NCBI GenBank assembly: GCA_903930455.1
Contig: CAIYYT010000235.1
Coordinates: 771 to 64,770, forward strand
DNA: 64,000 bases
Reading direction: 5' to 3'
DNA from: an uncultured bacterium
GTDB taxonomy: Bacteria > Zixibacteria > MSB-5A5 > CAIYYT01
The notes under the pieces are model-generated. The model had not been told where the DNA came from, searched no databases, and was given only the letters and a program-made list of their open reading frames with translations. Below are positions 712-62,050 of this stretch, one piece after another. Position numbers and translations under genes: made by a program. Each line of letters begins with the position of its first letter. Position 1 is the first letter of the stretch.

Positions 712-785
<74 letters not shown>

Positions 786-7460: not shown

Positions 7461-7731
7461 ACAACGAGCATTCACCCAGAATGCGAGCCTCTTGTAGCCT
7501 CTTCTAGATGTCTGAAAGCACACTCTGGGCTTGACTTGATACGTGGTCGACAAGCATCGGCCGCAGGGGTCATCAAGAGAAGCAGCGTCTAAAATGTATT
7601 CAACCTCTTATCGGCTGCTCAGCGACATTTTACCGAAACCCGTCAATCAATCATTGACATAGCAGTTCCTTGCGACATGGTCATTTGCATTAAGGCATTA
7701 ATTTTGATTCTAGAATCGGTCATGACGGTTC

Positions 7732-33972: not shown

Positions 33973-34019
33973 CGTTTCCTCCTTGTCTTGATACGCAAGC
34001 GTATAAACGCGAATCACTT

Positions 34020-40100: not shown

Positions 40101-40251
40101 AGACCAGTTCCAATGCTTGTGTGTTGTCGTGGCGGCGCTTTGCCTTTAGATCACACGGTTGATCCTCGTTGCGCCTTTGCCCCCCAGGTGGACCAGTCGT
40201 TACTTGACTGACCCAAAGTGATAGTTGCAGCTCATGTGTATGTTGCGACAC
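37114..40251 (-). CDS. Fused N6-adenine DNA methyltransferase / SNF2-family helicase with inserted zinc ribbon
   Basis: N-terminal region: GARVLDNTCGHGAMF (motif I) and LLNPPFG (NPPF motif IV). C-terminal region: DMGLGKTRTSIA (SNF2 motif I), VDESQMMK (DExx) and a helicase-C region. Zinc ribbon: CPSCGKT...CCICGW...CPQCKS...CRSCG. Confidence 0.8.
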   Translation of the reverse strand: MSQHTHELQLSLWVSQVTTGPPGGQRRNEDQPCDLKAKRRHDNTQALELVSSGAFDREEVFRLYTGVGGLLEKEEGENFLAASHKALGQYFTPASVTKLMVDMLSIPKGARVLDNTCGHGAMFWHLPQGCYATGIEFQEEACLVARALFPGQTVIQGDCLEYLFENQFHYALLNPPFGLNWKTNLKLDLVGFGGKILSHVACLELAIRAVMPSGYLAVILPKGSLKRPDMVSFRRWYRGQTRIAAEIDLPKETFKEQGVEARTTLLVMRKLPAPDRPAFRIVVGASDLLPANGSGDEGCFARVRNAWFAEQSYVDALAFAAEIRDLGPVEPERKNSLNVVSIAKEKPADSSSAEGLLLKKGRYSVIPFSGDILTALKLAEIREVRCSKDHWRDDDPYQELISLSAFYTSANKPKVLDLLEAYQINWQYDTGLAHWIARKRRWWQRQQFVYQTYSEPPKIKKKRKAQYKESSSPLLQDHIPDAYGVNRRKLDLLGLSPFLFEYQQMDAARLACKPFNALLYDMGLGKTRTSIATALIAGSRRVLVICLSRLVKVWTDELAKLGIDSVAVIKSARDIENTSRFTIVSYEKLSRQGVASLDPIVCPSCGKTVRGECCICGWRRTGALVCPQCKSEAWSGHGCRSCGYVDRAWIPSLVKRLKRRTWGMIIVDESQMMKTKNSLRSQAVSSLKAKRKLLLTGTLIKGYVPDMFWQLHWCFGGGSPGFPYPWRGGAKRFISQFATYEYVSDEYQDRIQGKKKMVPKVNNLPAFWQLMGPKVIRRLVDDPMVKQSIQLPAKEVKVIMVEMDVDQKAVYDWWYENFVEWYREQLELEERDANYTMKNAAILGQLWKLRQAATCPHIFTGEDGGPAFRGRLTNKHKALNDILENIPQNNKAVIFTGYNPNAILISGTLKAPLLIGSTPIDVRNEVIEEFQKQPEPKALVAGLLAMNLGQTLTRANHALMTDLDWCPSSMVQAEGRLLRISQEQSVQVTYLLSKGTIDEDMYELLYLKQAAINEAIDHKMQTEKVHPLSIRDFVNEMLKRKECGK

Positions 40252-43402: not shown

Positions 43403-44680
43403 ATGACGAATAGAGAACTCCTCATCCTCGGAGAGACAAACTACCGCAATGACCGAAAGCGGTTCGGTATACTCAAAGAAGATCGCCGGCGACATATGTA
43501 TATCGTTGGCAAGACAGGCATGGGGAAGTCTACACTTCTACTGAACTGCATTGTGCAGGATATTCAGCGCGGGAACGGCGTCGCAGTACTTGACCCGCAT
43601 GGTGACCTTGTGGAGCGCGTCTTGGACTACATCCCGCCGAAACGGATTAACGAAACAATCTATTTCAATCCCGCTGACACCGAGTACCCGATTGCCTTCA
43701 ACCCTCTGTATCACAAAGATGTGTTTCAAGGACACCTTGTGGCCTCGGGTCTGATTCAGGTCTTTAGGAAGATCTGGGCTGATTCCTGGGGACCACGGCT
43801 GGAGTATGTCCTGCGGAATGCAATTCTGGCGCTCCTGGAGAATCCCGGCAACACGTTGCTTGGCATTCCTCGGTTATTGACCGATGATTTGTTTCGCCAG
43901 AAGATCATTAGAGGTGTCAAGGATCCGATTGTGCGGAACTTCTGGGAAGTGGAGTTTGAGCAATATCCCAAGGTCTTCCGGACCGAAACAATCTCACCTA
44001 TTCAGAACAAAGTTGGGCAGTTTCTGTCAACGCCGATCATTCGCAATATTGTCGGGCAGACGAAAGCAAAGTTCGACCTTAGCGATGTACTTGATTCAGG
44101 CAAGATTCTGCTGATGAATCTTTCCAAAGGTAAGATTGGCGAGGATAATTCTTCGCTCCTCGGCGCGCTGATGATTACGCAAATCCACTTGGCCGCTGTC
44201 AAGCGGGCTTCGATGCCTGAAGAGAGACGGCGCGATTTCTACTTGTATGTTGACGAACTGCAATCGTTCGTGACGGAGGACTTTCCTTCGATATTATCAG
44301 AGGCACGAAAGTACCGACTCTGCGTGATTGCCTCGAATCAATTTATCTCGCAATTGCCTGAATCAATTTCAGCATCACTACTTGGAAACGTAGGGACACT
44401 GATATCGTTCACTGTTGGATTTGAAGATGCGGAAACTCTTTCCCATGAGCTTGACTCTGTGTTCAGTGCTGATGATCTCCGGGGATTGCCGAGATACAAT
44501 GTTTACTTGAAGCTATCGATTGGAGGATCTACCTCACGCTCATTTAGTGGCGAGACCTTGCCACCATATCCGGCGAGCTTCCGATCAGGGACAGCGAGAG
44601 TCATTGAGCAGAGTCGCCAAAGGTACTGCTTGGGATGCACGCACGCGGACAGCAAGATCAGGAAGTGGATTGCAGGCTGA
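43403..44680 (+). CDS. VirD4/TraD-like coupling-protein-family ATPase, soluble paralogue of 9158-10792
   Basis: Walker A GKTGMGKSTLL. Shared motifs with the first copy: IYFNPAD, GKILLMNLS, FYLYVDELQSF, ARKYRLCVIASNQ. Confidence 0.65.
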   Translation: MTNRELLILGETNYRNDRKRFGILKEDRRRHMYIVGKTGMGKSTLLLNCIVQDIQRGNGVAVLDPHGDLVERVLDYIPPKRINETIYFNPADTEYPIAFNPLYHKDVFQGHLVASGLIQVFRKIWADSWGPRLEYVLRNAILALLENPGNTLLGIPRLLTDDLFRQKIIRGVKDPIVRNFWEVEFEQYPKVFRTETISPIQNKVGQFLSTPIIRNIVGQTKAKFDLSDVLDSGKILLMNLSKGKIGEDNSSLLGALMITQIHLAAVKRASMPEERRRDFYLYVDELQSFVTEDFPSILSEARKYRLCVIASNQFISQLPESISASLLGNVGTLISFTVGFEDAETLSHELDSVFSADDLRGLPRYNVYLKLSIGGSTSRSFSGETLPPYPASFRSGTARVIEQSRQRYCLGCTHADSKIRKWIAG

Positions 44681-44691
44681 CCACGCTCTCG

Positions 44692-46821
44692 TTACAGGCT
44701 TAGCAGATAGGATATTTTGCCGAAAACAATCTCGGAGTCCTTTGCGAACGTTTGCTCCCCATTGTCGTAACCGGAGTTGTAGGCAAGATAGAATGTGCTT
44801 CCAGGAAGGAACGTGTATCCAAGCAGAAGATTGGCAGTGAAGTAGTCAGATTCGCTATTCCACTGAAGGAAGGCCCTGATGAACAGGTCGCTTGAGGAAT
44901 TGTAGGCACCCTGCAATACTCCAATCCATTGACTAAGTGTCCTGGTGCCGCCTCTCTCGACATACTGGCACACGTGATTGATCGAGGGAGACACTTCGAC
45001 CCTTGGACTTGGTCTCAGACTAAGGGAGAGTGATTCCTCTCGCTGCCACACGGTCTGGGCATTCCAGTAGTCAAGCGCTTGTCCTTCGGCAACCTGCGCC
45101 GAGGAGGTGAAGTACTTTGTGGGATTTGCGGAAACGCTCACGTAGTAGTCATACGTGTCATGGCTAGTTTTCTCCCAGAGGGTCTGATTTCTCCGCGTAC
45201 CGAATTCCGCCGTGACGTTTCCACTGAATTCGGTAGTCAGCCGGACATATCCTCCACGATCCAATGGAGAGCCCAAGTACAACTCTGCAAGAGAGTAGCG
45301 TCCGTACGGCGTGACACGTCTGAGCCAGCCATTGTTAACTTGCCAAGTATATGACACAGAGCCAAGGTGTTCCCTGTATGATACGGGCTCCATATCGAGG
45401 CCACTGTACATTGGCGTAACAAAACCCGAAGCTGCCTCAAAACGGCTTTCCTGAAATCGGTATGAATAGAGCAGATTCCAGTTGTTCCTGCCGAAATTCA
45501 CGGAAGAGTTGCCGATCCATGTGAGTCTACCGTTAGTATTTGAGAAGCTTTTGGCAGCCTGTCCTTCGAATAGGATGCTCTTGTGAATGATTCTCCAGTC
45601 GACTGCCGCTACCCGGTTGTGGCGTCCATCTGTTTCTTTGGCCGTGCCAATGAAGCCGATCCTTGACTGTGCCAAGATATCCCGCTCCAGTCTGACGACA
45701 CCGAAATGCTCTTTTTCAGACAAGCCCTGATTGTCATTGAGAGCGTACAGTCCACCGATTCCGTACTTGCCAAGTTTGCCGCTTACTTTGAGTCCGACCA
45801 ACGGTTTTGAAATCCTGCGACTGTAGAAGAGATCTTCCGGAGTGTCGAATATGTCCATTCGTTCGAGGAAGAATGGTCTCTTCTCCTGCAAGTAAAGCTC
45901 ATACGGTCCCAGATTGATCTGATCGATGTCTGCCTCAACTTGACCGAAGTCGGGGTTGGCGGTCAAATCCGCGACCAGGCTCGTATTCAGGGCGTATTTG
46001 AGGTCACCACCAAATTCAACTTGTCGTCGCGATCCATCCCCCTTGTCACTCTTGACGGTGAGGTATGGAAGCACGGTTGCTCGCTGTCCTGCTGATATTC
46101 CCGTGATTCCACGCAACTCGGCGGTCCGCGAGAGGAAATTGTTGTCCACGACCCTGAAGGGTACATATGTGGACATTTCGCCTCTCTGGGTGATCTGTCT
46201 CATAAGCTGGAATCGCCAGGTCTGCATGCTGCTGTTTGGGAATCTGATTGACTCCAAGGGAATGGCCAACTCAGTCTGCCAGCCCGAGTCGGTCATAACT
46301 GACCTGGAGGACCAGATTCCATCCCAACTTGGATCGTCGCGATCTCCGAACTGCAGCAAGTCGGCCTGGATTCCGTATGGATTGACGACAAACTCGTACC
46401 CGGAACGCATGTCGTTGTACGTGTTCAGAAGCAGCATGATCCAATCGTCACCAAAGACTGCATCTCGGTTGTCTATATTAGCAGTGATTTGCCTGGGGTC
46501 TGAATGGAAGCATAAGGCAGCGAAGTACAGATTGTGCTCGTCATAGGCGAAATAGCAGACTGTCTTCTCGCTAGATGGCTTTCCTTGATCGGGTTTCCAC
46601 TGTGTGAAACCTGTTACCGCGGATGCCTGCTGCCAGCACAGTTCATCCAAGGTGCCATCGACGTTTACAGGAGTTGATGCTCTGATGGCGGTCACGGCAA
46701 GCCTGTCCAGCGCCACAGAGTTTGTATCGCTTGCGCGGCTCGTGCTTGCCGGAATGACGATGACAACAGTCAATACCGAAATCGCTAATTGTCGGACGGT
46801 TTGCGCTTTTATCATGTTCAT
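44692..46821 (-). CDS. Large secreted protein, probable outer-membrane beta-barrel (DUF5916/CBM9-like guess)
   Basis: Signal peptide. A ~700-aa beta-rich sequence with alternating aromatic patterns. C-terminus ends ...FGKISYLLSL. Confidence 0.45.
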   Translation of the reverse strand: MNMIKAQTVRQLAISVLTVVIVIPASTSRASDTNSVALDRLAVTAIRASTPVNVDGTLDELCWQQASAVTGFTQWKPDQGKPSSEKTVCYFAYDEHNLYFAALCFHSDPRQITANIDNRDAVFGDDWIMLLLNTYNDMRSGYEFVVNPYGIQADLLQFGDRDDPSWDGIWSSRSVMTDSGWQTELAIPLESIRFPNSSMQTWRFQLMRQITQRGEMSTYVPFRVVDNNFLSRTAELRGITGISAGQRATVLPYLTVKSDKGDGSRRQVEFGGDLKYALNTSLVADLTANPDFGQVEADIDQINLGPYELYLQEKRPFFLERMDIFDTPEDLFYSRRISKPLVGLKVSGKLGKYGIGGLYALNDNQGLSEKEHFGVVRLERDILAQSRIGFIGTAKETDGRHNRVAAVDWRIIHKSILFEGQAAKSFSNTNGRLTWIGNSSVNFGRNNWNLLYSYRFQESRFEAASGFVTPMYSGLDMEPVSYREHLGSVSYTWQVNNGWLRRVTPYGRYSLAELYLGSPLDRGGYVRLTTEFSGNVTAEFGTRRNQTLWEKTSHDTYDYYVSVSANPTKYFTSSAQVAEGQALDYWNAQTVWQREESLSLSLRPSPRVEVSPSINHVCQYVERGGTRTLSQWIGVLQGAYNSSSDLFIRAFLQWNSESDYFTANLLLGYTFLPGSTFYLAYNSGYDNGEQTFAKDSEIVFGKISYLLSL

Positions 46822-46879: not shown

Positions 46880-48097
46880 TCAGGCGCTGACTTCTGCTGT
46901 GCTTGCTGGAATGCACACGAACCGTGAAGCAAGCAACGCCGCGCAACAGACAATTATCCCTGCGCCGACATAGACGGCCCGAATCCCAACGATGTCCGCA
47001 AGAATTCCGCCTGCGCCCATGGACAGAAGCTGGCTGAGTTGCCCGAGCACGCCCATCGTCGCGAACGTTCGACCCATGACGGCTTCATGTACATGTTTCT
47101 GAAGCACGGTATCGATAGTAATTGAGAGGAGCGTTTGAGAGACGCCGACAATCGCGAAAAGAACCAGGGCAATCCATGCATACGAACAAAGGGAGATGAG
47201 AAGCAGAGACAAACCTAACGCTATGTATGCAGATCGCAAGACGGCTTCCTCGCTGAGCCTGCCGCGAAACCAGGTGACAAAAGCACCAACGAAGCTGCCT
47301 ACGGCGGTTGCGGAGATGATCATGCCGTACAAAGCGTCACTGCCATTGAGCAATTCCTTCACGAATATGACGGCCAGTACAACGATAGCGCCCGCGCCAA
47401 GCTGCATACCCGCGTCAGTAACTAGCACCCATTTCACGAGGCTGTTGCTCCGTATCTGTCTAAATCCCTCAATTGCATCGAGCCAAGGAGCCTTCATGCT
47501 CTTCCACTCGCGTCTCTCGTGCTGAGTCTGCGGGATTGGAATCGATAAGATGACAACGGCCGAAATGAAATAGGTCACGGTGTTGAAAACGCAGACGAAA
47601 GTGAATCCGAACTGAGCATACATGATCCCCGCCAAGCCCGGACCGACAATTCTCACTAGCTGACTGCTCATTTCTCTTAGTGAATTCGCCTCCAATAAGG
47701 CTTTCTTCCCAAGAATCATGGGCAGCGACGCTGAGTAAGCAGGGCTGAAAAAAAGCCCCACCAGAGTAGAAGCAAATACGATCACGTAGAAAGCGGGAAT
47801 ACTGGGAGTAAACGCCATGATCAGGAAAAGCAATGCTCGAACAACGTCAGAGATCACCATTACCCATTTACGGCTATATCGGTCTACGATTACTCCCGCA
47901 AAAACGCCAATGACTACGGAAGGAATGGCCATGGCGATCTCGAGGAATCCGACTGCTGCTCCAGAGCGTGTTTTGTCGTAGACATACAGGCTGAGCGCAA
48001 TCAGGTTGATCAGCGTGCCGAGTTGTGACTGAGTCAATCCGATCCACAGTCTCAAGAACTGTCTGTTGGATACCAACAGGCCTATTCGCTCACGCAT
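46880..48097 (-). CDS. MFS transporter (probable exporter of the RiPP product)
   Basis: 12 predicted TM segments and an MFS motif-like DRYSRKW between TM2 and TM3. Confidence 0.75.
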   Translation of the reverse strand: MRERIGLLVSNRQFLRLWIGLTQSQLGTLINLIALSLYVYDKTRSGAAVGFLEIAMAIPSVVIGVFAGVIVDRYSRKWVMVISDVVRALLFLIMAFTPSIPAFYVIVFASTLVGLFFSPAYSASLPMILGKKALLEANSLREMSSQLVRIVGPGLAGIMYAQFGFTFVCVFNTVTYFISAVVILSIPIPQTQHERREWKSMKAPWLDAIEGFRQIRSNSLVKWVLVTDAGMQLGAGAIVVLAVIFVKELLNGSDALYGMIISATAVGSFVGAFVTWFRGRLSEEAVLRSAYIALGLSLLLISLCSYAWIALVLFAIVGVSQTLLSITIDTVLQKHVHEAVMGRTFATMGVLGQLSQLLSMGAGGILADIVGIRAVYVGAGIIVCCAALLASRFVCIPASTAEVSA

Positions 48098-48105
48098 TCC
48101 GTCAC

Positions 48106-48462
48106 CTAGACCGTGTCTTCGTCCGCAGCAGAATACTCGCCAGAACCATCGTCTGCAAGTATCCTGATGATTCCGGCAACGCGCAGTTGACTAACGAATT
48201 CTCTGGTATCCTGCTCAAGCGCAGCTCGTGTTTGTTGCTGACCAAACAGGTCCTCCATCCTTTTGAGCAGGTCACTGAGGGAAACGGCGGTACGTGATCC
48301 GACGCCTGCTATGGACTTCCAGATTTCGATTCCCGCGGCGGACTTGATTGCCGCTTCCTTGCTCTCGCCTCGCCTGTTGAAGATCTTGATCGCGCCCAGC
48401 TTGTCCTGTGACCAGCGTATATGGCGTTCAACTTGCATCAACACTGTACGCACTCCTTGCAT
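48106..48462 (-). CDS. PqqD-family protein (RiPP recognition element)
   Basis: A ~100-aa protein with a PqqD-like pattern (IWKSIAGVGSRTAVSLSDLLKRMEDLF...EFVSQL). It overlaps the radical SAM gene by 25 nt. Confidence 0.6.
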   Translation of the reverse strand: MQGVRTVLMQVERHIRWSQDKLGAIKIFNRRGESKEAAIKSAAGIEIWKSIAGVGSRTAVSLSDLLKRMEDLFGQQQTRAALEQDTREFVSQLRVAGIIRILADDGSGEYSAADEDTV

Positions 48463-49568
48463 TCAAACGGACCATGGCCGTTTCGTTTCCCCTCTGCGAT
48501 GTACTGGTCGAACTGCCTGCATTCAGTGTTCACGCCCTCGCCATATCTAGCTACGTCCAATGGACACGGCTCGCAAGTCTCAAACAGCGGACAGTCCTTG
48601 CAGTAAGGTAGATGCTCATACAGGGCACCATAGTGTGCGAATGTATAGAACGATTTCAAGTACTCGGAGTCAACTATTTCCTCAAACGTGTGCCTGGCCA
48701 CACTAAGTTCTTGATGCTGAACGGCACCGTGAAGAATGTCGAGCGGAAAGTCAGAGCAGTAGTTACAGGGAGACACCAGGCCATCTGCGCGAATGTACAT
48801 CGTCTCGGAGCCCGCGGGGCAGTACCGATCCACCTGCAGTTTGAGTCCATATTTCTCGTTCAAGAGGTGTCGTATCCGGGGAGAACCAAAGTTGAGAACC
48901 GAGATGTCGATTGCTCGTTCCTGTGCCATTAGCCGGGCAATCTGATGGAGGCAGTCCCATGTCTGCTCGCGACTCGGAAGGAATGCCCTCGCCTCTTCAT
49001 GCAGCGCCTTCAACGCATCGAAGCTAACGAAATCAAGGCTCTGCGACTTGGCCAGTGTGACAATAGGGGTGATCTCCGCAATGTTTGCTTGATTGATGGT
49101 GCACTGAATGCCAATCTGGGACGTGCAGCCCTTCTCGTGGAAGTACTTTGAGAGCCTTCCGAGGCAGCCGACGGACTTTTCGAAGGAACCCTTTCCTCTG
49201 AGGCAGTCGTTGGATGCTGGCGTCGCGCCATCAATGCTGAAGGCAATCTGACTGGGAGCGATCTCCGCCAGGTCTACGATTGTCTCGTCGTCGAGCAGAA
49301 TTCCGTTTGTTGCCACATTGCAGCAAATTCCTGTGCCCTGGGCGTATCTCAGAATCTCAAGCATGTCTTGACGGGCGAACGGTTCTCCACCTAGAAACTG
49401 GATGTGCTCGACTTCGTCTCTCGGGAGTGTTTGGAGGAATGCGAGTATGTCTGACGTTGACAAGTCGCCAGTTTTCGCGGCCACTCCGGCGGCATCATAG
49501 AGTCGAAAGTTATAACAATGTTTGCACGACAGATTGCACTTGCTCGTTATATCCCAAGCAATGATCAT
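48438..49568 (-). CDS. Radical SAM/SPASM-domain peptide maturase
   Basis: N-terminal CNLSCKHCY (CxxxCxxC). C-terminal Cys-rich SPASM-like region CPAGSETMYIRADGLVSPCNYC...YCKDCPLFETCEPCPLD. Confidence 0.8.
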   Translation of the reverse strand: MIIAWDITSKCNLSCKHCYNFRLYDAAGVAAKTGDLSTSDILAFLQTLPRDEVEHIQFLGGEPFARQDMLEILRYAQGTGICCNVATNGILLDDETIVDLAEIAPSQIAFSIDGATPASNDCLRGKGSFEKSVGCLGRLSKYFHEKGCTSQIGIQCTINQANIAEITPIVTLAKSQSLDFVSFDALKALHEEARAFLPSREQTWDCLHQIARLMAQERAIDISVLNFGSPRIRHLLNEKYGLKLQVDRYCPAGSETMYIRADGLVSPCNYCSDFPLDILHGAVQHQELSVARHTFEEIVDSEYLKSFYTFAHYGALYEHLPYCKDCPLFETCEPCPLDVARYGEGVNTECRQFDQYIAEGKRNGHGPFECKECVQC

Positions 49569-49593
49569 TAGTCTCCCTTCAATTGCGGCCTCA

Positions 49594-49621
49594 GACTAAC
49601 CGGGGATGCGCAAGAGAGCAT
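49594..49621 (-). promoter_or_regulatory. Intergenic stem-loop between precursor and maturase genes (attenuator/processing hairpin)
   Basis: Perfect 10-bp stem CCGGGGATGC/GCATCCCCGG with an 8-nt loop and no U-tract. The position is typical for precursor:enzyme stoichiometry control in RiPP operons. Confidence 0.45.
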
Positions 49622-49673
49622 CCCCGGCTGCACTCAGTGTTCGTATCGTTGGAAGCCCAGAGAGCTCTCCACC

Positions 49674-49775
49674 TCGGTGTTAGTTTGCCTGGCCCGCGCA
49701 GTTGAGACACACCACATTACCCCTCCGGGCCTTTGGTCGTGCGTCCTTTGGCACCAACAGTTCTGGTTTCTCGTA
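49674..49775 (-). CDS. RiPP precursor peptide, 33 aa (MMYEKPELLVPKDARPKARRGNVVCLNCAGQAN)
   Basis: This small ORF is below the ORF-track cutoff. A consensus RBS AAAGGAGGTG sits 9 nt upstream of ATG. The C-terminal core CLNCAG carries two Cys. It lies immediately upstream of the rSAM/SPASM, PqqD and MFS genes. Confidence 0.65.
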
Positions 49776-49924
49776 CATCATTTCTTTTTCACCTCCTTTC
49801 GTGACCGTTATGGTTCTTGTGGTGCACCACAGAACCATGGATTGTGTCTATCATTTCATCCGGATTCAAGCTGCTCCTTAGCTCATCAAAGAAGCTTCAA
49901 ACGTCGACTAACTACCGATCACAC

Positions 49925-49939
49925 TCCGTAGCGAACTCC
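49925..49939 (-). promoter_or_regulatory. Sigma54-type (-24/-12) promoter candidate upstream of the precursor peptide
   Basis: The minus strand reads TGGCACGGAGTTCGC against consensus TGGCACG-N4-TTGC, with one mismatch in the -12 element and the GC retained. It lies ~150 nt upstream of the precursor ATG and downstream of the sigma54 activator gene. Confidence 0.5.
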
Positions 49940-49940
49940 G

Positions 49941-49959
49941 TGCCAAGACAAAATTACAT
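49941..49959. promoter_or_regulatory. Perfect palindrome GACAAAAT-tac-ATTTTGTC (overlapping TGTCGACA) next to the sigma54 promoter
   Basis: Seen directly: 8-bp inverted repeat with a 3-bp spacer. Candidate regulator or IHF-type site. Confidence 0.4.
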
Positions 49960-50171
49960 TTTGTCGACACATGCTAAGTCAAAGGTTAGCAATAGAATTG
50001 GGTGATTTGCCAGTTACGGAAATTGAATCGGCGGTCCGACAAAAGCGTGATTTCCGCAGATTGCTCCGTTAGTGTCAGTGAACCAGCGGGTAAAGCTATG
50101 AGGGATAGAACGATAGTTCCGTGAACAAAACCGTTAGCGGCTGCTCGGAGTGTGAAGGCATCAAGCCAGAA

Positions 50172-52343
50172 TCACTTGCTGATTCCGTGCTTTTGTAACC
50201 AATCCCGGAAAGTCGACAATGGCACGCCCAAGTCCCGCGCTGCGCGAGTCTGGTTGTCGTTGTTGCGCTTCAGAGCCGCCAGCATCCGATCCTTTCTGGA
50301 TAGTCCAGGTTGCTCTGCTATCAAAGTCCCAAGAGCGGCAAGAAAGCCGTGGAAGTCCTTCGGTGGAGATAGGGCTGCGGCCAGAGACACTAAGTTCTCG
50401 ATTTCCCTTACATTCCCTGGCCAATGATAGCCGTGCAACTCGCCAAGTAGTTCGGCCAGGTCGTTCCCGTCTATCGACTCAGGTGCAAGCCCTTCGTCGG
50501 CAAGAAATTGTTCCACGAGCGGCACCAGATCCTCGGGCCGTTCACGAAGCGGCGGCAGATGATGATGCACCTTGCTGAACCGATGCCAGAGGTCCACTCT
50601 GAACGAACCGTCCCTAATCATGTCGTCGATATTACGGTTGGTTAGCGCAAGAAAGCGGATGTCGATTGAACGCTCGCGTTTTTCTCCCAATGGCAGAATT
50701 CTCTTCTTGTCTACGACTCGAAGAAGCTTGGCCTGGATGATCGGCGGAATCTCACCGATTTCGTCAAAGCAGAACGTGCCGCCGTCTGCTTCTTCTATCA
50801 TTCCCGTTTGGTCCGCAGTCGCACCAGAGTGAACACCTTTGCGGCAGCCAAAGAGCAACGACTCCACCAGAGTCTCAGGGAGATTGGCGCAATTGACAAT
50901 ACGGAAAGGCTTGTCGCGCCTGGGAGAAATGTCATGCATGTGCCGCGCCAGGAGTTCCTTGCCGGTACCGGTCTCGCCCGTGATCATCACATTCTGTTCA
51001 CCGTTCCGGAGTCGATAGGCCAATTCGAGAAGCTTCAACATCTTATTGTTCTTGGTTACGATGAGGGGAACTGTCTCGCGGAATTCTTCACTGCGATGCT
51101 TTCGATGCCCTGATTTTGAAATCGCGACCTTGGCAACCGCCTTCTCCACCTGTGCCACTCGCTTGGGAACATCCAACTCGGTAAACAGTGTCTTGGCCTG
51201 GTGGAGACGCTCTTTCTTTGTCTCGGCGTCAAGACAGCCCGCTTCCCCTGCCGCCAGATAAGTCACCGCCAGTTCATATCGCGCGCCATGGCGGGTAAGA
51301 ATCTCCACCGACTTGCCGAAGTGTTCGCTGGCCAACTGAGCGTCGTCGCGTTTGTCTGAGAGCAGAGCCAGAGCGCGGTGCAAAGCACCCAACTCAACCA
51401 ATTCCTTCGTCTTGGTGATGGCTGCTTCGGCTTTGACCGCTGTTTCCATCGCCTTGGAGAAATCGCCCTCGGCGATATAGACATCAGTCAGCATTCGCAG
51501 GGTTTGTGCCATCGCCGAAGCGGTCGGTTCCGGCATCGCAAAGACTTGCTTGTAGTATTCCTTGGCTTTGCTGTGGTTCCCATGGAAATACTCGTTTAGT
51601 CCGAGGTACTCGAGACAGACAGCGTTGTCGCGCGACTGGCCAACATCCAGGAAATATCGTTGCGAATCCAAGAGGAGCTCGTGGGCCCGTTGGTAGTTCA
51701 GGCGGTAAAGATCCAGCATCCCTCGGAAAAGATTAACATATGCCTTATCAGCTGCGCCCAAGTCTTCTGAATCAAAACCGTCAAGAGCTGCTTGGATTCT
51801 ACCAAAATCACCGAGCAAAAATGAGACTCGGCACAGGTTGAATTCACAAGTCCTCATTTGGGTCAGCATATTATGATCTTTGCAGAACTGAAGGGCTTCT
51901 TCGAGTACGTCAAGCGATTGATGGAGATTGCCGCCCAGGAAGTGAAGTCCGGCGAGATTCATTAGCGCTGTAGCTGCTGACCGGTGATCGTCGACTCTCT
52001 TGAAAAAAACATACGATTCTACGTACGCTTCACGGGCTTCTGATGCTCTCCCCTGTTGCTGGTAGATGCGTCCGAAGTACAGTTTTATCGATGCGAAAAG
52101 TGAGTGATCGGCTGAACTCTTGGCGACTGGGGATACCTGTTCCAAGGTCTCAAGGGTCGACTGATACTGACCAGTGTGGTACTGGCACTGGGCTCGCATG
52201 AACTTGAGACGCAGGATATCAGCATCAGGTCTGTCACTCTTCTCAAGTTGGGTGAGGTCTAGAAGCGACAGAGCTTCTTGATACCGTTTTTCGGAGACCA
52301 AGTACTTTACTTGCTGTATCTCGGCTTCAAGCACCGAACTCAT
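50172..52343 (-). CDS. Sigma54-dependent transcriptional activator with N-terminal TPR repeats (bEBP, AAA+ and Fis-type HTH)
   Basis: TPR-like repeats fill the N-terminal half. The AAA+ region reads VMITGETGTGKELLARHMH with a GAFTGA-like GVHSGA loop. The C-terminus is an HTH (RAARDLGVPLSTFRDWLQKHGI). Start assigned to ATG 52343 (AAGAGGGG RBS). The ORF is open to 52490. Confidence 0.75.
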   Translation of the reverse strand: MSSVLEAEIQQVKYLVSEKRYQEALSLLDLTQLEKSDRPDADILRLKFMRAQCQYHTGQYQSTLETLEQVSPVAKSSADHSLFASIKLYFGRIYQQQGRASEAREAYVESYVFFKRVDDHRSAATALMNLAGLHFLGGNLHQSLDVLEEALQFCKDHNMLTQMRTCEFNLCRVSFLLGDFGRIQAALDGFDSEDLGAADKAYVNLFRGMLDLYRLNYQRAHELLLDSQRYFLDVGQSRDNAVCLEYLGLNEYFHGNHSKAKEYYKQVFAMPEPTASAMAQTLRMLTDVYIAEGDFSKAMETAVKAEAAITKTKELVELGALHRALALLSDKRDDAQLASEHFGKSVEILTRHGARYELAVTYLAAGEAGCLDAETKKERLHQAKTLFTELDVPKRVAQVEKAVAKVAISKSGHRKHRSEEFRETVPLIVTKNNKMLKLLELAYRLRNGEQNVMITGETGTGKELLARHMHDISPRRDKPFRIVNCANLPETLVESLLFGCRKGVHSGATADQTGMIEEADGGTFCFDEIGEIPPIIQAKLLRVVDKKRILPLGEKRERSIDIRFLALTNRNIDDMIRDGSFRVDLWHRFSKVHHHLPPLRERPEDLVPLVEQFLADEGLAPESIDGNDLAELLGELHGYHWPGNVREIENLVSLAAALSPPKDFHGFLAALGTLIAEQPGLSRKDRMLAALKRNNDNQTRAARDLGVPLSTFRDWLQKHGISK

Positions 52344-52359: not shown

Positions 52360-52707
52360 TCAAATGGCGTCCTCGTTCCAGCCATGGTCTCTGGCAATAT
52401 CTGTCCAGGGCTTGTGCGGATCGGTGCCGCTTTTCTGAGGCTCGTCTGGAATCGGCGGCTTGCCTTCCACGATTGTGAAAGGTAGACCAAACCAACTGCG
52501 GAAGCAGTACTTCAGGATGGAAATAATCGTCTTCCCAGTCGGAGCCGGCATACTCGTCTCTGGCGATGCAAGTGTCGGCTTGACCTGGCTGATTGCGTGC
52601 GCACATTCCTTGGGTGAGTGCACCTTGCCGTCCGCCAACAAGGGCGTGCAAAGGACCAACATCCCGATGAGGACCAACGGGATAAAACAATGGACCATCT
52701 TTCTCAT
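52360..52707 (-). CDS. Small secreted protein, hypothetical
   Basis: Signal peptide MRKMVHCFIPLVLIGMLVLCTPLLADG. ~115 aa. Confidence 0.4.
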   Translation of the reverse strand: MRKMVHCFIPLVLIGMLVLCTPLLADGKVHSPKECAHAISQVKPTLASPETSMPAPTGKTIISILKYCFRSWFGLPFTIVEGKPPIPDEPQKSGTDPHKPWTDIARDHGWNEDAI

Positions 52708-53330: not shown

Positions 53331-53374
53331 GGCTCATAACCCGAAGGTCGCAGGTTCAAATCCTGCCCCCGCTA
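53331..53374. repeat. Direct repeat (attR core): displaced 3' half of tRNA-fMet, followed by CCA
   Basis: 44 bp identical to 742-785. Here the repeat continues gctaCCA, matching a native tRNA 3' end. There is no 5' half upstream. Confidence 0.85.
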
Positions 53375-54534
53375 CCAAACCTAAGCCCTTGAAGAGCAAC
53401 ACCTTCAGGGGCTTCATTATAGACAGTGGAGTCTTGGTTGGCGGGTTCTTCTAACAATCTTCTAACAGAATTGCCGAAAACTGTTTGATCTAACCTCCGC
53501 GCCGCCTCTTTGTGCGTGCCGGGGAAGAGATGTCCGTAACGGTCCAGCGTCGTCTTGGCCGAACTATGGCCCAGCTGCGACTGCACGAACTTGATATCCT
53601 CTCCCTGCGCGATCAGAAGCGATGCGTAGGTATGCCTCAGGTCATGGAAGCGTATTCGTCGTATCCCAGCTCTGTCGAGTGTCGGCAGGAACTGCCGCTT
53701 GACGAGATTATCAGGGTCGAGTGGACCACCATTCACATCGCAGAAAACCAGATCTAACTCAGTGGATTTACTAACAGTGCGGTGATACATGAGAGTCCGA
53801 CTCAACAGCGGCGACAGCATGATCCGTCGGATCGAATACGCCGATTTCGGTGTCTGAAAAGTACCTCGATACAGCGATCGCCGCACACTGATCTGGGACG
53901 AATTCCAGTCGATATCGCCCCACTTCAACGCCATCAACTCGCCGCGGCGCATTCCTGTCAATACGGCGGTCATGAACAGTGGCTGATAGCGCGAATCCGC
54001 ATGCTCCAGGAACAGGCAGACTTCTTCGGGTAAAAGAAAGTCCATCTCTTCCATCTCAACACGCGGGCGTTTCACGTACGTTGCCGGATTGCTGCGCAGA
54101 TACCTCCATTCAACTGCGTGTTCCAGCATTTCCTTCAGCGGGACCAATATGTTCACTACCGACTTCGGACTGAGGCCGTCAATCCTGATCTTTCTCGCAA
54201 GTAGGCGCTGGATGTCGGAACCGGAAATCTGATGCAGCCATAGCTTGCCCAGAGAAGGTAAGAGATGACGCCGCGTAATCGCTTCATAACTAACAAACGT
54301 TGACTGCTTGACACTCACTTTCGCATAGTCTTGCAGCCACATCTCAGCGAACTCCGCAAACGTCGCCTTCTTGAGCTCGGCAACAGCTTCCTCGTAGACT
54401 TCGGTAACCCGCCTGACGAGCAAGCGTTCAGCTCTTTTCTTGCTCGGTCCTGCGGATTCCCATCGTTGACGGCCGTTTACTCGATAAACGGCATACCAAC
54501 ATCCAGCGCGTTCAACAACGCTTCCTTTTGCCAT
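53356..54534 (-). CDS. Tyrosine integrase (phage type, with N-terminal arm-binding domain)
   Basis: AGGAGGTG RBS before ATG 54534. N-terminal GSVVERAGCWYAVYRVNGRQRWE is an AP2-like arm-binding domain. The catalytic region reads HDLRHTYASLLIAQGEDIKFVQSQLGHSSAKTTLDRYGHL. The last codons lie inside the 44-bp att repeat. Confidence 0.85.
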   Translation of the reverse strand: MAKGSVVERAGCWYAVYRVNGRQRWESAGPSKKRAERLLVRRVTEVYEEAVAELKKATFAEFAEMWLQDYAKVSVKQSTFVSYEAITRRHLLPSLGKLWLHQISGSDIQRLLARKIRIDGLSPKSVVNILVPLKEMLEHAVEWRYLRSNPATYVKRPRVEMEEMDFLLPEEVCLFLEHADSRYQPLFMTAVLTGMRRGELMALKWGDIDWNSSQISVRRSLYRGTFQTPKSAYSIRRIMLSPLLSRTLMYHRTVSKSTELDLVFCDVNGGPLDPDNLVKRQFLPTLDRAGIRRIRFHDLRHTYASLLIAQGEDIKFVQSQLGHSSAKTTLDRYGHLFPGTHKEAARRLDQTVFGNSVRRLLEEPANQDSTVYNEAPEGVALQGLRFGSGGRI

Positions 54535-54819
54535 TTGCTTTTCACCTCCTTTCAGTCTGGCATGGCTATAAGGTTTAAGGGCCTGGAGTTCATTGCAGTG
54601 CCTAGCGAAGTCACAGCGCAGCGATTGCAGCGAGACCGAGACCGAAGGTCGGTTGGCAACTAAAAACCGCGTTGCCAGATACGATACTGCAGAACGGCTG
54701 ACAAAATCTGGCCGGTGCGATGCGTTCGAAAAAGCACTCATTATGAAGCAACATACGGCAATTCTCCCGCGATTTCAAGTGCTGTTTGCCCTTTGGTGAT
54801 TCTGACTGCCGGCGCAGTA

Positions 54820-55008
54820 TCATTTGGCTCCTCCTTTGGACTTCGCCTTTAGATATTCGAGTACTTCCTTTTCAAGAAACCTCACGTACTTGCCAAATTT
54901 GTAGTGAGGAATCTGTTCGGTGCCGTTTTTCCGGGTGCGGTCATATATCCATGTCACTGGAACCCTCAGGCGTTTGGCCAACTCATTGATGTCGAGATAC
55001 GTGTCCAT
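54820..55008 (-). CDS. Excisionase/AlpA-family HTH DNA-binding protein
   Basis: YLDINELAKRLRVPVTWIYDRTRKNG...IPHYKFGKYVRF is an Xis/AlpA-like HTH_17 pattern. It is adjacent to the integrase. Confidence 0.65.
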   Translation of the reverse strand: MDTYLDINELAKRLRVPVTWIYDRTRKNGTEQIPHYKFGKYVRFLEKEVLEYLKAKSKGGAK

Positions 55009-55015
55009 CGTCTCT

Positions 55016-55630
55016 TCAATCTGCGTCTGTCTTGCGATGCCAGCATATAGTGATCGAGATAAAGTGACACCAGTTGTTGGTGACTTGGTGTTTTCCGAGT
55101 GGGGCTTTGACGAGGTTTCCAAGTTTGCCTGTTTCGATGTGGTCTTGTTTGGGGAAGATCTCGTGACTTGGGCTGATTTCCTGTCCCAGTGCTCTGACGA
55201 TTCGGTTTGGGTAGGGTTTGTCGAAGAATATCCAGATGTGGTAGCCTTTTTTTCCGGAGAATTCGGTCAGACATGGAATCCTCAACTGGCTGACGCGCTG
55301 TTGTACCTTGCGGAGTTCGGCTTCGTCCAAAGTGTCGATGTCGATGCAAAGCCACTTGGTGGTACTGTCTGGTGAGGAGTGAAGGCTGATGGTTTTGCTG
55401 CCTTGTGGGTGGTCTGCTTTGATGGCGTCGGTTATTGGTTCTCGGATGACGGTGTAGCCGCCGTTGCCAGCTATTTGTAGTGGGTAGCAGTCTTCGCGCT
55501 GGATGAAGCGTTGGCGAAATAGGTTGATGATATCTTGACTCGGTGTTGTTGTCATTTGTTCCATTTCCTCCCTACTGACTCTCAAGCGGATGGTTTGGTG
55601 CTTCGGTTTCAGATCGGAGCACTTAGCCAC
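55016..55630 (-). CDS. Primase-polymerase (Prim-Pol/AEP) domain protein
   Basis: WLCIDIDTLDEAE (DxD) and SGKKGYHIWIFF (sGxGyHhW motif). The N-terminal boundary is uncertain. Confidence 0.6.
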   Translation of the reverse strand: MAKCSDLKPKHQTIRLRVSREEMEQMTTTPSQDIINLFRQRFIQREDCYPLQIAGNGGYTVIREPITDAIKADHPQGSKTISLHSSPDSTTKWLCIDIDTLDEAELRKVQQRVSQLRIPCLTEFSGKKGYHIWIFFDKPYPNRIVRALGQEISPSHEIFPKQDHIETGKLGNLVKAPLGKHQVTNNWCHFISITICWHRKTDAD

Positions 55631-56138
55631 CTGCTTTGTTGTGTTTGCTTTTAGACTTGGCCGGCGCTCTGGAGTAGCGCTATCAAGTCTTGATATGTGT
55701 TGGTGAAGCGAGACGGGTTGGACTCGCGAATCACTTTAAGTAGTGAGTCCCCGAAAAGCTTTATCAAGTGGGTGACTATCTGCTTCTGCAGTGGCCAATC
55801 GGTGGGATTGATGAGATTGGTTGTGCGCCATTCGATCAGCCGGATGAGTGTTCAAGAGGTGGGCGTATCCCGAGTTGGGGGAAAGCTTCACTGAACAGTT
55901 TGCGTTGGAGCGAATCTGTCAGCTAAAGCTTCTGCCCCCTTGAGAGAATGGGTCTGGTTTCCGGTGACTCGGAGGTTTTCGATTATTGTGTGGCATTGTG
56001 GTAGATAGCGCGTTGGAGAGATTGTTGACACCGTTTTCCGGCTTTCCAAATGGGTAAACTGTGGGAAGATCACGAATAGCAGACTGTAAAGGCTTCTGCA
56101 GCCAAACACAGGAAAAAAAGACAAAGGAACTCGAGTTA

Positions 56139-56336
56139 CTACTGGTAAGCCTCCTCTAAATAAACTGGATAATCATCATAGCAGAAGTCTGGGTACCAGA
56201 TGTCGCGTCTTAGTTCCTCCTCAGGGGAGGTGTCTGGTTCGTACTCTAGTCGTATCTTGCGTCGTTGGAGTAGGCTGGCTACTTGTCGTTCTCCCTGGCT
56301 TCGATATTGCTGGTTGAGCTTGTTTTCGAGCGTCAT
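56139..56336 (-). CDS. Hypothetical small protein
   Basis: ORF. Its start overlaps the stop of the upstream gene by 4 nt. Confidence 0.35.
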   Translation of the reverse strand: MTLENKLNQQYRSQGERQVASLLQRRKIRLEYEPDTSPEEELRRDIWYPDFCYDDYPVYLEEAYQ

Positions 56337-57415
56337 TTTGTGAGTTTGTTCATGATTTCGACTTCTCCTCGTGTGAGGCGTAGTAGCTGCTTTTGGACGT
56401 TTCTGAGTTTGTCGAGCAAGTTTTGTAATTCGTCTTGCAGTCTTTGTGCTTGGATTAGGTAGGTTATGGCTTGTTTCGCGTTGCTGTGTCCCAATTCGTT
56501 CAACGCCAAGTTTAGGTTTCGTTGGAATTCTTGGTGGTATTGTTCTATGCGTTTTTCGATGAGTTGGATGGCTTGGTTGGCCATTATGCTTTGTCGTTCA
56601 ACTTGGATGGCTTCCTTGAGGAGTCGTTGGTTGTCTGGCGTGAGTTGGTTGTAGGTTTGCGAGAGCCGTGTGAATCCTGCGATATCCCACTGCTCGAGTT
56701 TCTGGTTGATGACTTTGAGCTGGTTCATGGAGCGACTGAGTTCGCTGTCCTGTCTTTGAAGGTCTGATAGTACTTCTCTTATGGCTGGGGCCGTCGTTGG
56801 CGTGATGCCTTTGGTCTTGAGTACGTCGATGACGGTTTTGATGTCTCGTCCGATGACTTTTTCGGTTTTGGCTGCTTGCTTTTCTTCCTTAGTGGATTGT
56901 TCAGTGAGATTTTCCCTTTCCCGATACTTTCCGGTGTCGGGCTTTGGGGCAGTTTTCTGCGTCGCTTTGCCGGTGAGGTCGATTTCGGACAGTACGTCTT
57001 TGCCTGATGGGAAGTGGCTTTTGGCCTTCATGACGAGCATGACGATTAATACTGGTATGGTTATGAGTACTGCGGAATCAACCCAGGCTGCGAATTGGTT
57101 GCTTTGCGCCCATTGGTAGATTTCGGGGAATGTGGCTCTGGTGAGGAAGTACGTAATGATAAAAGCAGCGAGTCCCGAGGTGGCGGTGTTTCCGCCGATG
57201 TGCTTGATGAAGATGAATACTGTTAGTGCGACGAGGCTGAGCAAGATGACTGCCGCAAGCGGGGCGAGGTTTCCGAGTCTGAATCCGGTCGTGTAGGAGA
57301 AGACCGTCATGGCAATGCTGAGGATAACTGCAATGCCGGAATTGATCATCTTTCCTTCTTTTCCCGGAAACTTCTTTGAAAGAACGAACCGCGAAAGGCC
57401 TGTGAAGATGATCAA
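56333..57415 (-). CDS. Polytopic membrane protein with C-terminal coiled-coil
   Basis: 4-5 TM segments in the first ~150 aa, then a K/E/Q-rich coiled-coil. Confidence 0.5.
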   Translation of the reverse strand: MIIFTGLSRFVLSKKFPGKEGKMINSGIAVILSIAMTVFSYTTGFRLGNLAPLAAVILLSLVALTVFIFIKHIGGNTATSGLAAFIITYFLTRATFPEIYQWAQSNQFAAWVDSAVLITIPVLIVMLVMKAKSHFPSGKDVLSEIDLTGKATQKTAPKPDTGKYRERENLTEQSTKEEKQAAKTEKVIGRDIKTVIDVLKTKGITPTTAPAIREVLSDLQRQDSELSRSMNQLKVINQKLEQWDIAGFTRLSQTYNQLTPDNQRLLKEAIQVERQSIMANQAIQLIEKRIEQYHQEFQRNLNLALNELGHSNAKQAITYLIQAQRLQDELQNLLDKLRNVQKQLLRLTRGEVEIMNKLTK

Positions 57416-57536
57416 GTAAACGACGAAATCGATGAAAGTGCTGTATTGCTGATATGTTGATGCGATGTTGATGTCTCGGAATGGTTGAAGTATGGTTTCG
57501 AGCGGATTCGCGATGTTGGATTCACCTCGTGGTTTT

Positions 57537-58730
57537 TTATTGTAGTGCTTCGAGTAGTCTGTTGATGCAGTTGTTTTTGGTTTCTTCAGGCATGGTGAGC
57601 GTGATGCGCTTGGACTTTTTCTTGAGAGTTTTGAGCCAGCCAGTATCGGCGTAGATCAATCCCATGTCACTGAAGTAGATCAAGAAGTTGCGGACCATGC
57701 GGTCAGTTAGGGGTGTGTATTTGTATTTGTGGCAGTGCTGGGTGTAGTCTTTGTAGATGTCTTCTGAAGGAATAATCCGCTTCGAGTTGAGCAGTATTGA
57801 TAGGAAGAGGATTTTTTGGTGTGTGGGTAGGGCGCCAACTATTCCAGTGTAGGCTTCGCTTTCTCCACGCTCCTGGGCTTCCTCAAAGATGCTCAGCGGA
57901 ATGGTCGGGAGCCTTCTTTCGATGGCGACGAGTGCACAGTAATACAACAGCTTCAAGGCTTCTCTTGCGTCTCCTCTCTTTGTTGTTTCTGCGGCGGCGA
58001 TCTTTTCGAGCAGTCCTTCTCCTATGACGTTGGGTTTGAAGCAGTAGTTGATTCTGTCTTGCATGATTTTGAGCAGGTCTTGGGCGTTGTAGGGAGTGAA
58101 GATGATCTTGTTGCGTCCAAAGCTGCTCGTGACTCTGGGTTTGATGTAGTTGGAAACGTTTACGTCATTGGAAATAATGATTGTAGTGACACGACTGGAA
58201 ACAAAGTCGTTAATGCGGCTAAGCAGGTAGAGAATGTCGTCTCCAGACTGCTTGAGCGTGTGGTCGATCTCATCCAAGACGATCAACAAATTCATCTTCT
58301 CCCTGTTCAAGTACTCTTTGAATTCATCAATCAACTTGGCTCGATTCCACCCGACTCGAGGAATCTTGCGATCCGGGTTCAGGATCTTGAGAGTGCTGGA
58401 TAGGATGGTGGCGTCGGTCTTGTTCTCCTCGCAGTTGATGTAGACCGTCTTGAGGTTGACTCCTCTTTTTTCTGCTTCTGTTTCCAGCTTGCAAGTGATG
58501 TCGAGGGTCAGCGCCGTCTTGCCAGTACCTGGGAAACCGTAGATGAACAAGTTGCTGGCTGCCTGATTCAGAAGAATCGGGCTGAGTTGGATGACGAGGT
58601 CGTTGTGCTGTTTCTCGCGATGAATGAACTTGCCCGACGGTGGCTTGAGCTGAAAGAGAGCCTGTTGGTTAACGAGAAGCCTGTTTTCCGCTGTGTCCTT
58701 GAATTCCAAAAGGGAAATACATATCACCAC
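57537..58730 (-). CDS. Orc1/Cdc6-like AAA+ ATPase with C-terminal winged helix
   Basis: LFIYGFPGTGKTA (Walker A), LLIVLDEIDHT (Walker B) and a sensor region. The length and arrangement resemble archaeal Orc1/Cdc6. It is unusual in bacteria. Confidence 0.6.
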   Translation of the reverse strand: MVICISLLEFKDTAENRLLVNQQALFQLKPPSGKFIHREKQHNDLVIQLSPILLNQAASNLFIYGFPGTGKTALTLDITCKLETEAEKRGVNLKTVYINCEENKTDATILSSTLKILNPDRKIPRVGWNRAKLIDEFKEYLNREKMNLLIVLDEIDHTLKQSGDDILYLLSRINDFVSSRVTTIIISNDVNVSNYIKPRVTSSFGRNKIIFTPYNAQDLLKIMQDRINYCFKPNVIGEGLLEKIAAAETTKRGDAREALKLLYYCALVAIERRLPTIPLSIFEEAQERGESEAYTGIVGALPTHQKILFLSILLNSKRIIPSEDIYKDYTQHCHKYKYTPLTDRMVRNFLIYFSDMGLIYADTGWLKTLKKKSKRITLTMPEETKNNCINRLLEALQ

Positions 58731-59075
58731 AATTGTCAGAACACCGCTCCCTTATATAGTTTTCCATCTCAGACAAGATTTCCATTCCCGCCCATTGGTG
58801 GGAGGCCCAGAACTCGATTTCGTTGTCAGCGATCACAATCTGATCATGCCGGCCAACTATGAGATTGATTTGAAGACACTGAGGGAGTTTTCGCAATGGC
58901 TTGGCTGACCATTTATTTTCCATATGGAAGGAATTGACTTGGGACACAATAGCTAATACTGGCGTCGACTCGTAGGTTGGAAAAGCACTGGCACTGACAT
59001 CGACTTCCTCTATGTCGGGACTGGTAAGGGTGATCCAGGCAGGGTTGTTCGCGCTCTAGTGTAGTGCCATACCTA

Positions 59076-62042: not shown

Positions 62043-62050
62043 CGGCTGTT

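Follow-up and report, generated by a model that had tools for sequence, protein, structure and literature searches.

Gene clusters that pair a short precursor peptide with a radical S-adenosylmethionine (SAM) enzyme carrying a SPASM domain are a main source of new chemistry among peptides made by the ribosome and modified after translation (RiPPs). Nearly 15,000 radical SAM enzymes associated with a RiPP recognition element (RRE) have been counted (PMC10288494), and thousands of such peptide clusters are uncharacterised. In the streptococcal SPASM enzyme NxxcB, the Cys thiol of the substrate is bound on an auxiliary cluster, a beta-hydrogen is abstracted from the Asn three residues upstream and a beta-thioether is formed (PMC9389541). 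By analogy of the precursor motif, NxxcB is the closest mechanistic precedent for the locus described here. We analysed a window of 64,000 nt from an uncultured bacterium (contig CAIYYT010000235.1, positions 771 to 64,770; all positions below are those of the window) in which an initial annotation had proposed a RiPP operon with a small precursor gene under sigma54 control. We consider a RiPP operon of an unnamed, very rare family, working as proposed, to be the best overall explanation, with a probability of about 0.75. The gene order is an activator of sigma54 with a tetratricopeptide repeat (TPR) domain, a sigma54-type promoter, the precursor, a stem-loop, the radical SAM/SPASM enzyme, a PqqD-like protein, a major facilitator superfamily (MFS) transporter and a DUF5916 protein (Table 1), and this order recurs in relatives.

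The precursor is read as a leader, M-M-Y-E-K-P-E-L-L, and a core, G-N-V-V-C-L-N-C-A-G-Q-A-N, and the ribosome-binding site GAAAGGAGGTGA lies 8 nt 5' of its ATG. The initial annotation recognised both the small open reading frame (ORF) and this site, and placed the ORF 6 nt too low, at 49674-49775. A homologous ORF of 33-38 aa was found at the same place in every relative's locus with upstream DNA (L001, L002, L004, L015 and L039-L042, and in a distant subfamily L017, L020, L043 and L044), so that the conservation of the small ORF beside homologous radical SAM/SPASM genes, which the annotation had looked to, is present at every locus examined. The homologous ORFs are preceded by a conserved ribosome-binding site of the form GAAAGGAG(G/A)TGA. 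Together these loci give 12 distinct peptides in two subfamilies, the more distant of which (WQTPTLL type) has a 35-aa precursor ORF, MKKWQTPTLLDFDVSPWENIHVGNGFCVVCSSGSD, and an enzyme that is 32-33% identical. Five residues (P6, L8, N22, C25 and C28) are invariant in 12/12 aligned peptides, within a conserved leader motif, aromatic-x-x-P-x-L, and a conserved C-terminal core, N-x-x-C-x-x-C, usually with a Gly before the core motif; the sole invariant core residues are thus the Asn and the two Cys, spaced i, i+3 and i+6. As each invariant residue is encoded by differing synonymous codons across loci, selection acts on the protein level.

The description of the precursor as unannotated held up, in that a collection of 15 billion proteins contained no exact match to the 33-aa sequence; the ORF is called in one assembly, in a version extended to 52 aa. 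An NCBIfam scan of all 12 precursors with E values up to 10 matched no family, and no Pfam precursor model matched any of them; the size of the precursor family rests on the DNA loci only. Judged by its sequence conservation, the small ORF is a real precursor gene, and a RiPP operon with the 33-aa peptide as its substrate is very probably what these genes encode.

Directly downstream, the predicted ORFs and their Pfam domains confirmed the radical SAM/SPASM enzyme, PqqD-like protein and MFS transporter that had been recognised there. The enzyme carries the radical SAM cluster motif CxxxCxxC as C11-x3-C15-x2-C18, and seven SPASM Cys residues (C250, C268, C323, C326, C332, C335 and C350) are invariant across its family. 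No NCBIfam model reached or came near its cut-off (75 matches, the best 25 all far below), and by sequence the enzyme matches no curated family; its nearest sequence neighbours outside the family are likewise unclassified. In an AlphaFold (AF2) model with a mean confidence (pLDDT) of 89.7, structure searching returned SuiB as the best match (TM-score 0.68), followed by ChlB, BlsE, anSME (the anaerobic sulfatase-maturating enzyme), SkfB, PqqE and CteB, all with at most 21% identity. These neighbours mark the modelled fold as that of a SPASM enzyme of peptide-modifying type, and the fold does not reveal the chemistry.

The start of the PqqD-like gene overlaps the stop of the radical SAM gene, and at every locus the enzyme comes with both a PqqD-like RRE and a peptide ORF. 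The protein scored 23.3 bits against Pfam PqqD, for which the cut-off is 23.4, and 4/8 members of its family match that model (best E 8.8e-9); its best sequence matches in the PDB are the PqqD chaperones of lasso peptides. The transporter belongs to the MFS_3/DHA3 exporter group, together with EntS, Mef and, weakly, the "ryptide" exporter, and its gene lies 3' of the RRE gene at all loci with enough sequence.

Upstream of the precursor, the sigma54 activator with its TPR sensor domain was found as annotated, from its Sigma54_activat, TPR_12/TPR_MalT and HTH_8 matches. The protein consists of a MalT-like N-terminal TPR domain of ~430 aa, an AAA+ domain and a Fis-type helix-turn-helix domain, the last scoring 19.6 bits against HTH_8, slightly below the cut-off of 22. 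The same 723-aa gene call is used in public assemblies, and L001, L002, L004 and L015 have orthologous TPR/sigma54 activators upstream of the cluster, with partial copies in L040 and on the P0004 contig. In the distant subfamily, a 167-aa GerE-type regulator stands by the precursor in place of this activator (L043 684-1187; L044 619-1122), and a near-consensus sigma54 promoter, TGGCACAGATTTTGCT, lies 5' of the regulator gene. Beyond the activator in our window, a small ORF with a signal peptide could be an accessory gene (Table 1); L002 and L004 have signal-peptide ORFs of ~100 aa at this place too, with an identity of only 19-24%.

The -24/-12-like element between activator and precursor is also present, with a spacing of TGGCAC-N4-TTCGC where N5 had been reported, and at a distance of 164 nt from the ATG. 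This element, TGGCACGGAGTTCGCT, matches the sigma54 consensus at 11/12 positions, and matches to TGGCACG-N4-TTGCW with one mismatch occur 3 times in the 64 kb against 0.5 expected. When elements were counted on the coding strand at most 800 nt 5' of the precursor, requiring at least 10/12 consensus positions with the GG and GC fixed, 7/10 non-redundant loci carried one upstream of the precursor compared to 0.41 expected (Poisson P ~3e-7). The density of such elements was 0.90/kb upstream of precursors and 0.05/kb elsewhere in the same sequences, an enrichment of ~17-fold. A palindrome abuts the -24 element here, and GACA/TGTC palindromes are also found 5' of sigma54-like promoters in L043 (~500-650) and L017 (~4280-4430); in L043, two copies of the palindrome GCGACAAAAATGTCGC lie 5' of the promoter element as candidate activator-binding sites. 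A sigma70 consensus scan of 44.5-53.4 kb found nothing near the precursor on the operon strand, and Rfam models, run over the entire window and over the leader region by itself, matched the tRNA only, with no riboswitch or other known RNA in the 140-nt 5' untranslated region.

The perfect 10-bp hairpin that had been described between precursor and maturase was confirmed, with an 8-nt loop. A stem-loop of 10-16 bp occurs at the same position in 10/11 loci folded, and its sequence differs between the two subfamilies. The arrangement is more than chance, as homologous loci repeat all three of its elements: the ORF, the promoter-like element and the hairpin.

The cluster is larger than initially annotated. 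All of the genes listed for it are present, and by its recurring position the DUF5916 gene belongs to it as well, lying directly 3' of the MFS gene here and likewise in L001, L015, L017, L043 and L044, that is, in both subfamilies. The AlphaFold model of the DUF5916 protein (pLDDT 87.9) has a barrel of ~22 strands, for which Foldseek returned LptD, TonB-dependent transporters and ushers with TM-scores of 0.3-0.4; the N-terminal domain matched a Bacteroides CBM-like protein. The two closest orthologues that could be placed (47% and 43% identity) are encoded directly behind an ABC exporter (L062 1-7013 and L063 3343-10130), in clusters that also hold Cys-rich small ORFs and whose radical SAM enzyme, of 460 aa and the Clo7bot/TIGR04463/CefB type, is unrelated. 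A sigma54 activator stands at the start of the L062 cluster, the precursor of which terminates in LNGVCGICCVTLTQ, with an NGVCGICC core that is also NxxCxxC. Because of the synteny behind exporters and the barrel model, the DUF5916 protein could be the outer-membrane leg of the export route and the partner of the exporter, a role to which we give roughly even odds. A PDB sequence search and a literature search for DUF5916 found nothing.

The enzyme family is very rare: nine relatives at 42-50% identity were found among 5.8 billion clustered proteins, and an exhaustive HMMER pass over 1.84 billion representatives gave four sequences above 300 bits and one at 277 bits, or ~5 clusters, with lower scores forming a continuum of other SPASM proteins. 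All members found come from uncultivated bacteria, of which only one is named, a Zixibacteria genome (L002). L018 and L007, whose enzymes are 29-32% identical, were set aside as a different family, as they have no matching small ORF upstream; a long ORF that may encode a methyltransferase lies there. A scan of viral contigs with the enzyme profile returned just distant radical SAM proteins of at most 35% identity, and thus no link to phages. The seven cluster genes are intact and 99.8% identical across independent assemblies, with no frameshifts. An apparent truncation of the activator and the MFS transporter in L047 was traced to scaffold gaps and not to decay. In total, the cluster is real and has no curated enzyme or precursor family; it is an unnamed family of a well-known type of system, set in an unusual context of regulation, cell envelope and mobile element.

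In the mechanism that we propose, the activator, on a signal sensed via its TPR domain, would open the sigma54 promoter, and the stem-loop would raise the precursor transcript above that of the enzyme. In lantibiotic and bacteriocin operons, such a rise of precursor over enzyme by partial termination or transcript stabilisation is well known. The PqqD-like protein would bind the leader and hand the core to the enzyme, which would cross-link it by 5'-deoxyadenosyl radical chemistry with the help of auxiliary Fe-S clusters. The likeliest product would be one or two thioethers from Cys25 and Cys28 to carbons of nearby residues, with Asn22, i-3 from Cys25, as the favoured acceptor, as in the Asn-Cys beta-thioether of NxxcB. 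The modified peptide would then be exported across the inner membrane by the MFS pump and across the outer membrane by way of the DUF5916 barrel. By analogy with described systems, a Cys-based thioether has about an even chance of being the modification, and Asn22 as its acceptor is a tentative assignment that we hold to be rather doubtful.

Several observations weigh against parts of this reading, and those on the enzyme leave room for two other accounts of its function. The sactisynthase models fall far under their cut-offs (StsB 78/625 bits, SkfB 55/300), with no other sactisynthase model near, and the PapB/SCIFF/Clo7bot/CefB models are absent among the best 25 of the 75 NCBIfam matches; by comparison, the Clo7bot model gives 294 bits for the L062 enzyme and 266 bits for that of L063. 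The structural neighbours also differ in chemistry, with C-C cross-linking by SuiB and PqqE, oxidation by anSME and thioether formation by SkfB and CteB. It is therefore conceivable, if unlikely, that this is a RiPP operon with another chemistry, such as a C-C or C-O cross-link, an epimerisation or a Cys oxidation, in which the CxxC of the core stays free, for example as a metal or redox site. That the models of thioether maturases are not approached by the enzyme, and that the Lys-Trp C-C cross-linker SuiB is its best structural match with anSME and PqqE about equal, would fit such a product, and CxxC is a classic metal- and redox-binding motif. However, the invariant core is just N, C and C, without the conserved aromatic, Lys, Glu or Tyr residues of known C-C and C-O cross-linkers, a precedent for an NxxC thioether exists (PMC9389541), and a core much like this one is the target of the unrelated ranthipeptide-type (Clo7bot/CefB-like) cluster in L062. 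The top NCBIfam matches, in turn, are N-terminal matches to SPASM enzymes that do not act on peptides: AhbD (98/500 bits), a tungsten-cofactor maturase (96/380) and NirJ, listed with ScmE, GeoRSP, MftC, StsB and the related streptococcal model WgkB (87/650). They are what would be expected of an enzyme that works on a small molecule or cofactor, in the manner of AhbD/NirJ, of tungsten-cofactor enzymes or of sulfatase maturases, next to an irrelevant small ORF. Yet none of these matches exceeds 98/500 bits and most cover only residues 2-185, the generic N-terminal half of radical SAM enzymes; the cluster lacks haem, tungsten and sulfatase genes, and a PqqD-like RRE and a peptide ORF that co-evolves with the enzyme are found at every locus, which makes a cofactor enzyme highly improbable. 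The sulfatase-maturase and haem-enzyme readings were rejected on these scores and gene contents, in agreement with the initial view that the enzyme is not of a non-peptide family: the anSME model is not among the best 25 NCBIfam matches, the similarity to the anSME fold (TM-score 0.68) is common to all SPASM enzymes, and neither the cluster genes nor the annotated island ORFs include a sulfatase, haem or pyrroloquinoline quinone (PQQ) gene.

The remaining points against the proposed operon concern its expression and export. The L1 loop of the activator reads GVHSGA, not GAFTGA (LFGCRKGVHSGA, residues ~497-508), and is fixed in all population copies examined; the corresponding sigma54-contact loop is GAFTGA in L001 and L004 and GSFTGA in L002. 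In PspF, F85 and T86 of the GAFTGA loop contact region I of sigma54, and substitutions there abolish open-complex formation (PMC3467059), so activation in this genome is not assured. In addition, the -12 element is TCGC and not TTGC, a good -24/-12 match is missing in L001, L002 and L015, and none of the stem-loops, including the one here, has a U tract; a scan of 44.5-53.4 kb for the terminator consensus found that the hairpin is no canonical terminator. The cluster encodes no leader peptidase, and L002 has no DUF5916 gene in the 4.4 kb examined downstream of its MFS gene. The fixed loop and the deviating -12 element could mean that the operon is silent or decaying cargo here, its activator unable to engage sigma54 and the peptide unmade or made from another promoter. 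We regard this as quite unlikely, as the seven genes are intact and nearly identical across assemblies, the precursor, ribosome-binding site, hairpin and promoter are all kept, the change from T to S in the loop is conservative and L039 likewise has a TCGC -12 element. The enhancer-dependent control suggested at the outset is thus favoured by the recurring activator and the ~17-fold enrichment of promoters, with the loop as the reservation for this genome, and we retain the RiPP operon under sigma54 control as the preferred explanation.

These results matter in several respects. The minimal invariant core, NxxCxxC, is a compact and directly testable substrate, and TPR/sigma54 activators are recurrently paired with such peptide clusters. 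For DUF5916, the modelled outer-membrane barrel, repeatedly encoded behind peptide exporters, would provide a first functional context. In the literature searched, no paper tied ranthipeptides to sigma54 or RiPPs to Zixibacteria. More speculatively, the modified peptide might be a secreted signal instead of a toxin: once exported by pump and barrel, the peptide or a piece of it would be sensed by the MalT-like TPR domain of the activator and switch on its own operon, a reading that we consider improbable. If it were true, a diderm bacterium of the FCB group would have a peptide quorum-sensing loop, carried on a mobile island, with a logic analogous to the TPR-based RRNPP/Rgg control of streptococcal radical SAM peptides and built from an enhancer-binding protein; DUF5916, with its thousands of members, would then be an outer-membrane peptide conduit.

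Table 1. Features of the peptide cluster, of the island that carries it and of the tandem element, in window positions
Feature	Position	Strand	Description
DUF5916/CBM9 protein	44692-46821	-	709 aa; signal peptide, CBM9-like sandwich, large beta-barrel; Pfam DUF5916, weak CBM9_1
MFS_3 (DHA3/EntS-like) exporter	46880-48097	-	405 aa; Pfam MFS_1 and MFS_3; NCBIfam TIGR00900, 223 bits
PqqD-like RRE	48106-48438	-	discrete, 110 aa; alternative starts 48444, 48462
Radical SAM/SPASM maturase	48438-49568	-	376 aa; Pfam Radical_SAM 66 bits, SPASM 27.5 bits (cut-off 21.5)
Stem-loop between precursor and maturase	49600-49627	-	perfect 10 bp, GC-rich, 8-nt loop; CCGGGGATGC (49618-49627) pairs with GCATCCCCGG (49600-49609)
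Precursor gene	49680-49781	-	33 aa, MMYEKPELLVPKDARPKARRGNVVCLNCAGQAN; ATG at 49781, stop at 49680 (included); from the ORF listing and a minus-strand reading of 49300-50200
Sigma54-type -24/-12 promoter element	49930-49945	-	TGGCACGGAGTTCGCT; GG-N10-GC, canonical spacing; 164 nt before the precursor ATG
Palindrome	49947-49965	.	GACAAAAT-GTA-ATTTTGTC; abuts the -24 element; candidate regulator-binding site
Sigma54 enhancer-binding protein	50172-52343	-	723 aa; Sigma54_activat 181 bits, TPR_12 60 bits, TPR_MalT, AAA_lid_14, HTH_8
Small signal-peptide ORF	52360-52704	-	overlaps the activator gene start; possible accessory, membership uncertain
attL	742-785	+	3' end of tRNA-Met (711-786); left copy of the 44-bp direct repeat
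attR	53331-53374	+	right copy of the perfect 44-bp repeat; peptide cluster just inside
Tyrosine integrase	864-1814		adjoins tRNA-Met
TrwB/TraD-like ATPases (two)	9158-10792, 43403-44680		island cargo
Serine recombinase	18672-20462		island cargo
AIPR abortive-infection protein	29819-31552		island cargo
SNF2 helicase fused to N6-methylase	37114-40251		island cargo
Second tyrosine integrase	53356-54741	-	probably starts at 54534, behind the same strong ribosome-binding site GGAGGTGA
AEP-TOTE primase	55016-55630		tandem element
Cdc6-like AAA+ ATPase	57537-58730		tandem element
988-aa ORF	59076-62042		tandem element; no Pfam match

The location of the cluster inside a mobile island, also noted in the initial annotation, was borne out by a perfect 44-bp repeat of the tRNA-Met end and an adjoining integrase. 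The repeat bounds an element of 52.6 kb, and the peptide operon is cargo at the distal end of this tRNA-Met-integrated element, occupying the last 8.6 kb before the right repeat. The element interval (864-44680) appears rich in defence and mobility genes, and its further cargo includes a PD-(D/E)XK nuclease, a DUF932 protein, an M48 peptidase and nucleoside-metabolism genes near the integrase. The same island context was seen in all 18 contigs read that carry an identical enzyme, and no mobility genes were found within 6 kb in relatives such as L002 (Zixibacteria); the island location is real and specific to this lineage. The cluster's place among the cargo of an integrative element suggests horizontal movement of such peptide systems. 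To the right of the repeat, a second mobile element follows in tandem (53356-64000).

Within the island, 32071-34032 on the minus strand encodes a GH17-like protein with a type IX secretion C-terminal sorting domain, which points to a host of the FCB group, in keeping with Zixibacteria as the affiliation of the only named relative. An imperfect direct repeat of 77 nt with 75% identity was also observed, at 7400-7476 and 8039-8115, 639 nt apart.

Finally, the cluster can be set beside the known systems. With PqqA/PqqD/PqqE it shares a three-part logic of a short peptide, a discrete PqqD and a radical SAM/SPASM enzyme, and the leader motif aromatic-x-x-P-x-(L/F) presumably resembles the N-terminus of PqqA. 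Unlike the PQQ system, its enzyme scores 63/381 bits on the PqqE model, Glu-x3-Tyr is missing from its core, pqqB/C/F genes are absent, and exporters stand in the place of cofactor-finishing enzymes. With the sactipeptides (AlbA, SkfB, StsB) it has Cys donors and a radical SAM/SPASM enzyme in common, and SkfB is the best PDB sequence match of the enzyme family profile (E 2e-18, radical SAM half only). As merely 5-6 residues follow the last Cys, the usual sactipeptide hairpin with C-terminal acceptors is impossible.

The likeness to ranthipeptides (PapA/PapB, SCIFF/CteB, Clo7bot, CefB) extends to a short Cys precursor, a radical SAM/SPASM enzyme, RRE-dependent recognition and a dedicated exporter. 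In the Clo7bot/CefB-like L062 cluster, from a related metagenome, the core (NGVCGICC) is nearly the same, and a sigma54 activator is encoded along with a DUF5916 orthologue. In contrast to ranthipeptide enzymes, the 376-aa enzyme here has no fused N-terminal RRE, and it shares ~22% identity over 140 residues with the L062 enzyme. The sactipeptide/ranthipeptide architecture assigned to the locus at first therefore stands as to the RRE, the SPASM enzyme and the Cys precursor; the enzyme belongs to no named maturase family of either class, neither to the sactisynthases nor to PapB/SCIFF/Clo7bot/CefB. Compared to NxxcA/NxxcB, the RRE here is a separate protein, the motif is extended to NxxCxxC, a TPR/sigma54 activator takes the place of shp/rgg quorum sensing, and the host is an uncultivated diderm, with relatives in Zixibacteria and an outer-membrane component. 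What the two systems share is the N-x-x-C motif in the precursor, with N22 and C25 invariant here in 12/12 peptides, and a radical SAM/SPASM maturase.

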